The notes beneath the pieces are model-generated. The model did no database searches. It saw only the letters and a program-made list of their open reading frames with translations, and was not told the origin of the DNA. A stretch of DNA of 24,000 nucleotides from Candidatus Nanoarchaeia archaeon (GTDB lineage: Archaea > Nanobdellota > Nanobdellia > Pacearchaeales > GW2011-AR1). Shown piece after piece: positions 208 to 3,024 of the stretch. The position numbers and the translations under genes were made by a program. Numbering within the stretch: position 1 is the first letter of the stretch; the number at the start of each line of letters is the position of its first letter. The DNA lies in the NCBI GenBank assembly GCA_028711165.1, contig JAQTST010000001.1:454558-478557 (forward strand), written 5' to 3'.

Positions 208-297
208 CTTCCCTCTTTTAAATTATAATCAAAATTAGTATTTAAATTTTTAGAATAACAAACTTTAAATTCTCTTAGAAATAAGAATAATTATCTA

Positions 298-352
298 GCC
301 CACATGCATAGTTCGGGAGTAACCCTCTCGCTTCGCGAATACAATGTGGGTG
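298..352 (+). other. tRNA-like minihelix or tRNA-Ser fragment just upstream of tRNA-Ser
   Basis: GCCCACAT-GCATAGT (298-312) copies the 5' acceptor and D-arm start of the tRNA at 362. TGTGGGTG (345-352) copies its 3' acceptor plus discriminator with one change. The two ends can form a 7-bp acceptor-like helix around a GC-rich core containing a TCGC-TTC-GCGA hairpin. Confidence 0.45.
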
Positions 353-361
353 TAAAACTGT

Positions 362-581
362 GCCCACATCGCATAGTGGTATTGCAGCGGATTGCTATCA
401 AGCGACTTTCCCTTCGGGTTGAGAGTCCACCTCGAGATTCCATTTATGGAAGCTCAATTAAGGTTTTGTCTTTCCCCTTCGGGGTTGAGAGATTTGCTTC
501 TCCCTTCGGGTTGAGAAGCCTTGCTTTCGAGCAAATATCCGCGCCCTTCGGGGCTCGCAGGTTCGATTCCTGCTGTGGGCG
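362..581 (+). tRNA. tRNA-Ser(GCU) with a ~139-nt intron (about 398-536) at the canonical 37/38 position
   Basis: Manual cloverleaf. Acceptor GCCCACA (362-368) pairs with TGTGGGC (574-580), discriminator G581, no encoded CCA. D arm GCA/TGC with a GG-containing loop. Anticodon stem GCGGA (387-391) pairs with TCCGC (538-542); loop TT-GCT-A. Long variable arm GCCC-TTCG-GGGC (543-554), typical of a class II tRNA. T arm GCAGG-TTCGATT-CCTGC (557-573). TTGCT (392-396), which includes the GCT anticodon, pairs with intron AGCAA (530-534), as expected for a BHB-type splice substrate. Confidence 0.8.
404..519 (+). repeat. Three copies of one hairpin module inside the tRNA-Ser intron (404-427, 468-493, 496-519), plus a separate hairpin at 434-455
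   Basis: Each module has a 6-bp lower stem, a 3-4 bp C:G upper stem capped by TTCG, and a 3-nt TTG bulge on the 3' strand before AGAnnn. Sequences: GACTTT-CCC-TTCG-GGG-TTG-AGAGTC; GTCTTT-CCCC-TTCG-GGGG-TTG-AGAGAT; GCTTCT-CCC-TTCG-GGG-TTG-AGAAGC. The lower stems differ by compensatory changes. Confidence 0.7.
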
Positions 582-586
582 TTATT

Positions 587-609
587 ATCGAACCTGGAAC
601 AGGTACGAT
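587..609 (+). other. Stable hairpin immediately 3' of tRNA-Ser
   Basis: ATCG-A-ACCTG-GAA-CAGGT-A-CGAT: 9 bp with one A.A mismatch, following the T-rich GTTATT trailer. It could be a processing or termination structure. Confidence 0.35.
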
Positions 610-647
610 TCCCGAGCGACTTTGCGAAAGTAGGGTCAGTGTTGAAT

Positions 648-720
648 GAGCGGGGTCGCGAGTTGTCTGTGGGCGTGCGAGGACACCTAATCGGTTTCCT
701 TAACTCGAACCCCCACTCGA
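648..720 (+). repeat. GC-rich hairpin region containing a decayed copy of the tRNA-Ser 3' end
   Basis: GGGGTCGCGAGTTGTCTGTGGGCG (652-675) aligns to tRNA 550-581 (GGGGCTCGCAGGTTCGATTCCTGCTGTGGGCG) with the T-loop deleted. GAGCGGGG (648-655) can pair with CCCCACTC (711-718). Confidence 0.45.
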
Positions 721-847
721 ATTTTTCAAATTTGACTTCGTGATTCCATCTCGTGAAAATTCTCGGCTTAATCTTCCCTTTAAATTTGTGGTCACGCTTG
801 ATTTTTATCACAATAATATTTAAAAATAAATTTTTCTAAGGGAGATT

Positions 848-1105
848 ATGGAAAATATTTTGAGGACAGAAATAGATAATAAAAAAGTATATTTTCGAGA
901 TGCAAAAGGAAGCAGGTTTATATTGGGAGATTTGGGAAGAACTCTTGAAAAAGAATTAATTGGGAAAGCTAAAGGAGACGGTGAAAAAGGATTTCTATTT
1001 TATGTAAGTGAAGAAGAAAATGAAAATAATATAACAATTTCCCGAGAAGAATACAGCAGACTTGTAGGATACGCCAACGAAAAACTTTCTTTAGAAATAG
1101 ATTAG
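848..1105 (+). CDS. Hypothetical small acidic protein (85 aa)
   Basis: ORF with a GGGAG Shine-Dalgarno-like motif 5-9 nt upstream. No recognisable domain. Its stop codon directly abuts the stop codon of the convergent GGDEF gene. Confidence 0.55.
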   Translation: MENILRTEIDNKKVYFRDAKGSRFILGDLGRTLEKELIGKAKGDGEKGFLFYVSEEENENNITISREEYSRLVGYANEKLSLEID

Positions 1106-1702
1106 TTATTTAACCGCGACGAATTTGTCTCTGCCAATACTTTTTGCGTTGTATAATGCTTTATCGACTCTCTCCTTGAATTTCTTTTTGCTATCTTCTT
1201 TTGTCCTGAATTGAGTAACTCCGCCGCTGACAGTCAGTTTATGTTTTTTTAAAGTTTTATCTGCGTGGACTAATCTTCTTAATTTCAGAGAAAAAGATTT
1301 TGCTTTTTCCAAATCTGTTTCCGGAAGCAGGATGATAAATTCTTCTCCGCCGAACCTCGCTGCGATGTCTGATTTTCTTACATTTTTTCTTATTACGTCT
1401 GCAAGTTTTTTCAGCAGCTCGTCGGCTTTCATATGCCCGTATTTATCATTTACCTTTTTGAAAAAATCTATGTCAATTATTATCATAGAAAGTTTTTGCT
1501 GTCCTCGTTTTGCTTTCTCGATTTCCATATCAAGAAGCGTTTCGAAAAATTTGTTGTTGTACAATCCTGTTTTCTCGTCGTGGGTTGCAACTTCGTAAAG
1601 CATCGAGACAGATTCGCTCATAGATTCAAATAATTCTTCTATTTTTTTCCTGAACCTCGGGTCGAGTGCCGAAAGTTTCTTTTTAATTTTTCTATCCATC
1701 AA
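1106..1702 (-). CDS. Stand-alone GGDEF-domain diguanylate cyclase (198 aa)
   Basis: Hallmarks of the GGDEF domain family: DEKTGLYN, IDIDFFKKVNDKYGH, and the active-site motif RFGGEEFIILL. An intact I-site RKSD lies five residues upstream of GGEEF. No sensor or transmembrane domain. Confidence 0.9.
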   Translation of the reverse strand: MMDRKIKKKLSALDPRFRKKIEELFESMSESVSMLYEVATHDEKTGLYNNKFFETLLDMEIEKAKRGQQKLSMIIIDIDFFKKVNDKYGHMKADELLKKLADVIRKNVRKSDIAARFGGEEFIILLPETDLEKAKSFSLKLRRLVHADKTLKKHKLTVSGGVTQFRTKEDSKKKFKERVDKALYNAKSIGRDKFVAVK

Positions 1703-1754
1703 TTATACAAGCAGGAAATATATATAAAATTAGCTATTTAGAAATCTCACTCTG

Positions 1755-1788: not shown

Positions 1789-2583
1789 TTACTTGCTCGT
1801 GAAATCGCTCGTTTTTCTCTTCTGAATGTAAAACTTATTTAGAACTTCCATTGCCTGCTGTCTTTGTTCAGAATTTCCAAGTCCTTTCCAGTCGAGGAGA
1901 ATCATGTCGATATCTTCTTCTGTTCCTGCAATTGCTTCCTGAACCATTTCTTCTGTAAGGGGGAGGGCATATTGGGGAATTATGTGAGAGATTGCGATGT
2001 TTGAATTCAGCTGGATTTTGTTAAAGTTTGGACAATAATGCGGACCGCCGATTCCGATTGCAATTTCATTGTAAGGGTTCTCTTTGAATTCTTCCATAGT
2101 TTCCAGGATAGATTTAGCGACGACAAAACCTGCGCGCCGGTCTTTCCATTCTTCTTCTGTTGCTCCGATTTCGACAAAAATGCACGGCTTGTTTATCAGC
2201 GGGCCGTGGTGAGTGCATTCTAAAGTCAAGTCATATTTTCTTAAATCAAATTTTTCTATATTCTTTTTTAATTTTTCAAATAATTGTTTTTGAAACAGCG
2301 CAGAAGTTTTGCATATTCTTCCCGCCTGCCCGCCGAATTTAGCTTCAGCCCAGTTTCCCGGAGCGTGAATTGAGATTGTTTTTTCTGCTTTTTCAGACAC
2401 GTGGCGCGAAGCGAAAATGATAAAGTCATAATGGCTGAATTTTTCTGTGTTGAGATTTTCTGTAAAGATGACTTCATTCTCGACGAGATAAAAATTCATA
2501 TTTCCAAACTGACTCAGCTGAGTTGTGATGTTTATCCCTGCTTTGTCAATCTTGCTGGCGACGATGAGATAATTTTTGTACAT
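1789..2583 (-). CDS. dtdA: D-aminoacyl-tRNA deacylase, archaeal DTD2 type
   Basis: Translation matches the archaeal tRNA_deacylase family over its length (IHAPGNW, TLECTHHGP, IGIGGPHYCPNF). The ORF extends to 2676, but I place the start at M32 (ATG 2583-2581, MYKNYLIVASK). That leaves an AT-rich divergent promoter gap before the + gene at 2662. Confidence 0.8.
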   Translation of the reverse strand: MYKNYLIVASKIDKAGINITTQLSQFGNMNFYLVENEVIFTENLNTEKFSHYDFIIFASRHVSEKAEKTISIHAPGNWAEAKFGGQAGRICKTSALFQKQLFEKLKKNIEKFDLRKYDLTLECTHHGPLINKPCIFVEIGATEEEWKDRRAGFVVAKSILETMEEFKENPYNEIAIGIGGPHYCPNFNKIQLNSNIAISHIIPQYALPLTEEMVQEAIAGTEEDIDMILLDWKGLGNSEQRQQAMEVLNKFYIQKRKTSDFTSK

Positions 2584-2661
2584 AAAAAGAAAGAGGGATA
2601 TCAGTTTAAATTTTTTTATATAATAATATTTATAAATTAAACTACTAAATAGATTTGTAAA

Positions 2662-3024
2662 ATGAGAAATATTCAAAATTTAATTGAAGAAGACAGAATG
2701 AAAATTCCCTTTGATAATGCAGATTTTATGGATTCTACTGAAAGAGAAATAATAGAAAGTAAGATTGGAAAAATAAGTTGGGAAGAAATAAAGAAAAAAT
2801 CTGGCTTCTCGAATATAAAAATAAAAAAAGTTATAGAGCCGTCAGAAAAAAATCCGTATGAGTTTACACGAATGATGACGATGGAATTAACTTGCATTGC
2901 CGGGGGTTATCTCATCGGCGACGGAATTAATAAAGAATATGGCGGATTGATTGGTGCAGTTGTCTTTGGAGCAGTTAATGGTTTTTGTGAATATCAGCTT
3001 CATAAAAAGAGACAAGGATTATAA
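2662..3024 (+). CDS. Hypothetical protein with a C-terminal Gly-rich hydrophobic segment (120 aa)
   Basis: ORF only. The C-terminal segment CIAGGYLIGDG...GLIGAVVFGAVNGF looks membrane-associated. No domain recognised. Confidence 0.5.
   Translation: MRNIQNLIEEDRMKIPFDNADFMDSTEREIIESKIGKISWEEIKKKSGFSNIKIKKVIEPSEKNPYEFTRMMTMELTCIAGGYLIGDGINKEYGGLIGAVVFGAVNGFCEYQLHKKRQGL

Follow-up and report, generated by a model that had tools for sequence, protein, structure and literature searches.

A 197-amino-acid (aa) GGDEF protein encoded in a Pacearchaeota (DPANN) genome is likely a native, minimal diguanylate cyclase, that is, a stalk-dimerised, product-inhibited synthase of c-di-GMP whose receptor would lie outside the known bacterial models. 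Here, we report the analysis of its gene, which lies in a window of 24,000 nucleotides (the whole stretch of DNA analysed; C3:454558-478557), about 455 kb into contig C3 (623,136 bp of the 637,553-bp assembly G000; estimated 88.6% complete, 0.1% contamination).

The open reading frame (ORF) scan returned a 198-aa frame (window 1106..1702, minus strand) whose first codon is TTG at 1702. A start at the following codon, ATG at 1699, yields a product of 197 aa, to which a database protein (P0001) is 100% identical; because the orthologues all begin at the equivalent methionine and the 197-aa database entry is identical, the gene was taken as 1106-1699, and residues were numbered from this methionine. 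A TTTAWATA-like box stands at the same distance from the ATG (~25 nt) in 16/16 orthologous loci compared, a fixed spacing that implies an archaeal promoter of the gene's own and a leaderless or near-leaderless mRNA. The mechanically called frame of the upstream gene, DTD2, opens at a TTG 31 codons ahead of a methionine shared by all orthologues (MYKNYLIV...), and its true start is probably Met32, at window 2583. Coordinates are collected in Table 1.

Table 1. Features of the GGDEF locus (positions in the window; residues counted from the methionine at 1699)
Feature	Position	Strand	Basis or remark
Predicted GGDEF diguanylate cyclase gene, 197 aa	1106..1699	(-)	ORF, Pfam, NCBIfam, database match
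GGDEF catalytic domain, residues 38-191	1127..1588	(-)	Profiles, predicted structure, Foldseek
N-terminal amphipathic stalk helix, residues 14-39, putative dimerisation element	1583..1660	(-)	AF2, hydrophobic moment, structural alignment
A-site motif GGEEF, residues 117-121	1337..1351	(-)	Alignments
I-site RKSD, residues 108-111, five residues before GGEEF	1367..1378	(-)	Alignments
Asp93, guanine-specificity residue	1421..1423	(-)	Invariant in alignments
Archaeal TATA-box-like element TTTTATATATA	1719..1729	(-)	Centre ~25 nt upstream of ATG
D-aminoacyl-tRNA deacylase DTD2	1789..2676	(-)	Directly upstream of GGDEF, same strand; PF04414
Convergent 85-aa ORF	848..1105	(+)	Stop abuts GGDEF stop

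A sequence-only reading of this DNA had proposed a profile check against PF00990, which returned a full GGDEF domain (E 1.8e-41; 142 bits, cut-off 23.8; profile positions 1-160 of 161); TIGR00254 also matched (158.4 bits versus a cut-off of 37.4). SiaD was the top NCBIfam model (163 bits), and the NCBIfam equivalog cut-offs were all missed (score/cut-off: SiaD 163/290, PleD 163/474, DgcA 146/370, DgcR 136/500). With a SiaD score below the cut-off of 290, the protein is not a SiaD orthologue. Its best solved relatives by sequence were the Marinobacter GGDEF domain 3IGN (1.5e-34), DgcR, GCN4-WspR, and PleD. More than 1,700 metagenomic proteins matched the query, and the best 120 of these are all 188-206 aa long. 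Pfam and the AF2 model agree with the earlier reading that a sensor domain is absent, with ~38 residues preceding the GGDEF domain.

The AF2 model (40-sequence alignment; pLDDT 93.7, pTM 0.82) predicts a long helix (residues 14-39, pLDDT ~86-90) followed by a canonical GGDEF domain. The 50 Foldseek matches listed were essentially all GGDEF cyclase chains (E 1e-17 to 1e-13), the top ones all active cyclases (3i5c, 3ign, PleD, WspR, SiaD, and DgcB; TM 0.73-0.84), and the highest value was that of 3ign when normalised to the target (TM up to 0.91). The whole model aligned (TM 0.73-0.83) to the engineered GCN4-WspR (3i5c), Pseudomonas aeruginosa SiaD (7e6g), and the coiled-coil+GGDEF construct of Caulobacter DgcB (6ttr), in which one N-terminal helix likewise stands directly before the catalytic domain. 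The stalk helix of the window protein is shorter (~26 residues) than theirs, identity is 29-35%, and, whereas SiaD has the activator SiaC, nothing SiaC-like is known for the window protein. The helix has a strongly amphipathic character, with hydrophobic residues at 3-4 spacing and a hydrophobic moment of 1.5 at 100 degrees. The order's two main clades differ by exactly 7 residues in helix length (alignment columns ~108-114), and such a step of one heptad would be tolerated by a dimeric stalk that is sensitive to register. From the predicted fold and its likeness to these structures, we infer that the protein may dimerise via the stalk helix. The response-regulator cyclases PleD (1w25/2v0n/2wb4) and WspR (3bre), which are regulated through an I-site, share with it RxxD at -5 and the residues of the A-site and those for metal, guanine, and transition state; they differ in having REC domains, which the window protein lacks, and it thus has no phosphorylation control.

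In the mechanism that we propose, the amphipathic N-terminal helix would pair two subunits into a parallel stalk, two GTP-loaded GGDEF domains would meet and condense 2 GTP into c-di-GMP, and product bound at the RKSD I-site would cap activity. As there is no sensor domain, activity would depend on how strongly the gene is expressed and on the geometry of the stalk, or else on a partner that binds the stalk, as SiaC does in the case of SiaD. Output would pass through a receptor that no bacterial receptor model recognises, and the product would be removed by dilution, feedback inhibition, or a non-dedicated phosphoesterase, for example a 345-aa DHH-DHHA1 protein encoded elsewhere in the genome. 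That the cyclase is active in vivo and signals via a receptor class outside those known is a possibility to which we give a little less than an even chance.

The earlier statement that no EAL, HD-GYP, or PilZ gene lies within the window held, and it extends to the genome: profile searches of G000 (88.6% complete) gave no match to EAL, HD-GYP (HD_5), PilZ, or MshEN, and motif scans of all its ORFs for MshEN and PilZ gave nothing credible. No class II c-di-GMP riboswitch was found in G000; for class I riboswitches, the control genomes themselves gave no signal. The GGDEF gene is the only one in the genome. A complete bacterial-type c-di-GMP module was not encountered in G000, with no dedicated phosphodiesterase and no known receptor found.

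Three side observations concern the nucleotide enzymes of the same genome. The DHH-DHHA1 protein (C3:196354-197391; L102:1429-2466) adjoins deoxyhypusine synthase and scores weakly against RecJ models, and a GAN/RecJ-like protein is also encoded in G000; if any protein seen in G000 hydrolyses a cyclic dinucleotide or pGpG, our guess would be the DHH-DHHA1 protein, as no other candidate is visible. The HD domain (PF01966) had 0 matches in the 637-kb genome versus 14/14 control genomes, archaea included, an unusual loss for any cell (genome 88.6% complete). Two DAC-type c-di-AMP synthase genes are present (C3:407710-408045(-) and C3:289944-290261(+); L103 and L104), in open frames of 364 and 202 aa; together with the GGDEF gene, synthases for two different cyclic dinucleotides would be encoded in G000.

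Partner domains are sparse in the wider lineage as well. Among 61 relatives, EAL had 0 matches above cut-off, PilZ 0, and HD_5 15. The strong HD_5 matches carry HDIGK and HHExxDGxGYP and are real HD-GYP proteins, and one of them has a long N-terminal extension (389 aa); as some families of the order thus have true HD-GYP proteins, the lineage does possess c-di-GMP turnover. In 200 genomes of the phylum, PilZ was found in 5, EAL in 3 (all GGDEF-EAL fusions, 725-847 aa; G136:C26, G176:C58, and G107:C4), and HD-GYP in 25 at E<=1e-10. GGDEF occurs in 17 of these 25 HD-GYP genomes (odds ratio 2.8, Fisher p 0.03, relatedness uncorrected). None of EAL, HD-GYP, and PilZ was found in 72/93 GGDEF-positive phylum genomes (~77%). 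At G101:C3:44413-45384, GGDEF and HD-GYP matches share one 632-aa open frame.

The orphan state of the cyclase in ~77% of GGDEF-positive genomes, a genome reduced to 0.64 Mb, and a window rich in pilins and secreted proteins could be taken to mean that c-di-GMP acts between organisms, being released or transferred to a host or partner of an episymbiont-like archaeon. We regard this as unlikely and purely speculative: the protein shows no signal peptide, neither an exporter nor a conserved neighbour ties the gene to export, and the presence of an I-site implies that the pool being controlled lies within the cell. The manipulation of a bacterial partner that the sequence-only reading had suggested likewise found no support in the data.

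The neighbourhood offers no clue to function. DTD2 is kept beside the gene by synteny but is no partner in function, and the neighbours of GGDEF in other genera are a P-type ATPase, GT2, NrdR, RIO kinase, DUF763, and an integrase; with neighbours differing among genera, no conserved operon partner emerged. The convergent 85-aa ORF was rejected as a conserved partner, its sole positional homologue, in one congener (L010), being 39% identical, and it had no Pfam, NCBIfam, or PADLOC match. PADLOC gave no defence match for the GGDEF protein or its small neighbours, and the neighbours are housekeeping genes; anti-phage (CBASS-like) signalling was rejected on these two grounds. Downstream, a GC-rich block (window 291-811; putative intron-bearing tRNA-Ser) gave no ARAGORN or Rfam gathering-threshold call. 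Relatives retain its exon-like pieces downstream of GGDEF, and a tRNA-Ser lies further downstream of the TrmB-to-GGDEF block in most assemblies sharing that block.

A recent acquisition from bacteria, with the gene carried passively on a small mobile cassette beside this tRNA-Ser, is very unlikely. Its position between DTD2 and tRNA-Ser, the flanking short GC-rich repeats (704-776 and 1755-1822), the variable content between GGDEF and tRNA-Ser among relatives, and an integrase directly beside GGDEF in one relative (L012) would all suit such a cassette, but the repeats are two short imperfect blocks (13/16 and 20/27 matches), and the flanks (640-800 versus 1690-1850) align at a mean column identity of 71%. 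The adjacency of DTD2 and GGDEF is genus-wide (59-88% protein identity, synonymous sites saturated), bacterial sequences reach at best 35-45% identity and belong to many different phyla, among which no donor clade stands out, and composition is native (gene GC 0.36 versus genome 0.35 +/- 0.035; codon score at the 26th percentile). A repeat-bounded cassette was rejected, as, by synteny, the spot next to tRNA-Ser is variable and GGDEF lies on its conserved side, with DTD2. As a separate observation, the gene directly downstream of GGDEF at L012:2064-3341 (G034, same family) belongs to the phage integrase family, a hint that, in some lineages, mobile DNA may carry or adjoin the gene.

The domain phylogeny that had been proposed was a quick maximum likelihood (ML) tree of 93 GGDEF domains. 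It placed the window protein in an all-archaeal clade of 18 rows (SH-aLRT 95) and gave at least three archaeal clades of the order; the backbone was not settled (45/89 forks open), and no bacterial donor could be named. An ancient transfer may lie behind the gene, and the tree of these 93 domains would fit one ancient origin or several.

The active-site residues of the protein are highly conserved. The metal and substrate motifs DIDFFK (76-81), ND (84-85), and Asp93 were found, as were Arg115 and the C-terminal AK..GR (K186, R190); in PleD, the metal Asp, the guanine-binding Asn/Asp, and the transition-state Lys/Arg are D327, N335, D344, K442, and R446. Among the closest homologues (best 120 of >1,700; 69-100% identity), GGEEF and RxxD at -5 are kept in 119/120 and Asp93 in 120/120, and the motif positions are all invariant in 13 order-wide orthologues (33-83% identity). 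In the 40-sequence alignment, which includes bacteria, D76, D78, F80, K81, N84, D85, D93, K186, and the I-site R and D are invariant, and R190 is conserved at >=90%. The gene has a pN of 0.10-0.25 versus a saturated pS of 0.7-0.86, with a dN/dS of ~0.07-0.2 where computable. At the level of these alignments, the catalytic, specificity, and I-site residues are shown to be kept under strong purifying selection across the order. The GGEEF, metal and substrate residues, and RxxD at -5 noted earlier were thus all found, and the complete GGDEF domain with its RKSD I-site fits the intact, product-inhibited diguanylate cyclase that had been predicted from them.

We see very little probability in a non-catalytic scaffold or a receptor that binds c-di-GMP or another nucleotide, a role that would suit the lack of partner genes found and the catalysis-independent phenotypes of some archaeal GGDEF proteins in Salmonella (PMC13725321). 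The catalytic residues are all invariant at 33-88% identity, unlike those of degenerate receptor-type GGDEFs, and as the sole GGDEF gene in the genome it would leave a receptor with no source of ligand. Hypr GGDEFs (GSU1658/GacA and MXAN_2643), which make cGAMP and have the same fold and family as the window protein, carry Ser in place of the guanine-specificity Asp. At position 93, none of the 120 close homologues or the aligned orthologues has the Hypr-type Ser, and all have Asp; the window protein is therefore not a Hypr enzyme, and a product other than c-di-GMP is unlikely. The different cyclic dinucleotide suggested earlier (3'3'-cGAMP or c-di-AMP, made in Hypr-like fashion) would fit a genome in which no c-di-GMP partner genes were found, but it deserves hardly any credence, with the specificity position Asp in all distant orthologues too, no Hypr Ser in 20 archaeal proteins either (PMC13725321), and two DAC-type c-di-AMP synthase genes already in the genome.

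The archaeal flanking genes read from the sequence were borne out by profile matches to DTD2 (PF04414) and diphthine synthase (TIGR00522, 195 bits) and by TrmB; IleRS and ArgRS are further neighbours. About 70 kb away on the same contig lies a complete archaeal SSU rRNA (1287 bits), accompanied by a tRNA and by the first part of an archaeal LSU rRNA, and archaeal rRNA models win the clan competition on C3. Independent assemblies that bear the labels Candidatus Pacearchaeota, Nanoarchaeota, or uncultured archaeon share the gene order TrmB-IleRS-Dph5-orf79-DTD2-GGDEF. The gene is native to a Pacearchaeota genome. An assembly chimera or mis-binned bacterial (CPR) DNA, as the sequence-only reading had considered, is untenable and its probability negligible: GGDEF is overwhelmingly bacterial, and a 71%-identical, 196-aa homologue (P0090) is labelled 'Patescibacteria group bacterium' at NCBI, but the DTD2|GGDEF junction occurs in at least 10 independent assemblies, the archaeal SSU and LSU rRNA operon sits on the same 623-kb contig, composition is native, the promoter has an archaeal TATA box, and contamination is 0.1%. 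P0090 is probably from a mis-binned or mislabelled Pacearchaeal contig.

GGDEF was found in 13/16 congeners, 20/36 other genomes of the same family, and 37/61 relatives overall (up to four matches per genome). An even sample of 200 genomes of the phylum (each >=90% complete) had it in 92 (46%) and in 84/158 genera; one family had it in 20/20, and one genome had six matches. For this phylum, these counts overturn the earlier view that GGDEF domains are very rare in archaea, which is also undercut by published DPANN GGDEF-only proteins (PMC8646023, PMC13725321). Three congeners (G002, G005, and G013) are without GGDEF at an intact syntenic site, with uninterrupted sequence after DTD2; the gene was truly lost there and is hence dispensable. 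The gene is common in Pacearchaeales and the wider Nanoarchaeota-type phylum, vertically kept, and dispensable.

A 2018 census by Galperin was still doubtful of archaeal GGDEFs (PMC5847659), Braun et al. (2021) reported >300 archaeal BLAST hits, many in Asgard and DPANN (PMC8646023), and Sidorov et al. (Mol Microbiol, September 2026) chose 20 GGDEF proteins, most of them encoded on DPANN and 'class II' contigs, several GGDEF-only and none with the Hypr Ser (PMC13725321). In that study, riboswitch reporters gave evidence of cyclase activity for 3/7 proteins tested, with inconsistent phenotypes, and no DPANN protein was consistent across all three assays; according to its abstract, c-di-GMP had yet to be detected in the cells of any archaeon (PMC13725321). 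The reporter results on other DPANN proteins lend indirect support to the predicted conversion of 2 GTP to c-di-GMP by the window protein. Phosphodiesterases, receptors, and origin (ancestral versus borrowed) are posed there as questions, and the present gene therefore does not open the question of origin.

The window protein is an ordinary member of the published kind, the archaeal short GGDEF-only proteins. By description, it resembles the DPANN proteins KHO53289.1 and KHO53915.1 (short N-terminal extension, GGEEF, signature residues, no Hypr Ser), a type whose DPANN origin was checked by flanking genes, and 3IGN, its best PDB match by sequence, is the best structural match in the same study (PMC13725321). 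Archaeal GGDEFs were described there as 'occasional', not multi-copy, whereas here they occur in 46% of sampled phylum genomes with up to six matches per genome. What is added here is their prevalence in Pacearchaeales and the phylum, where they are no occasional oddity, and the finding that most carriers are without EAL, HD-GYP, and PilZ. A 197-aa, sensor-less enzyme in a ~700-gene organism is about the simplest system for finding an archaeal c-di-GMP receptor; if the enzyme is active and its receptor of a new class, this would be the first archaeal c-di-GMP effector, sought in a ~700-protein proteome that can be screened exhaustively.

Some further loci are of note for their gene order. At the sites where GGDEF was lost, DTD2 is followed by a small secreted-looking ORF in G013 (L111) and by an ORF that is dUTPase-like by eye in G005 (L112) and G002 (L113). 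In L004, the gene immediately upstream of GGDEF encodes a P-type ATPase, and in L012 one lies nearby. In genome G056 (L002:747-3478), a P-type cation ATPase, GGDEF, and a GT2 glycosyltransferase follow one another in an operon-like arrangement, with GGDEF and GT2 overlapping by 8 nt.
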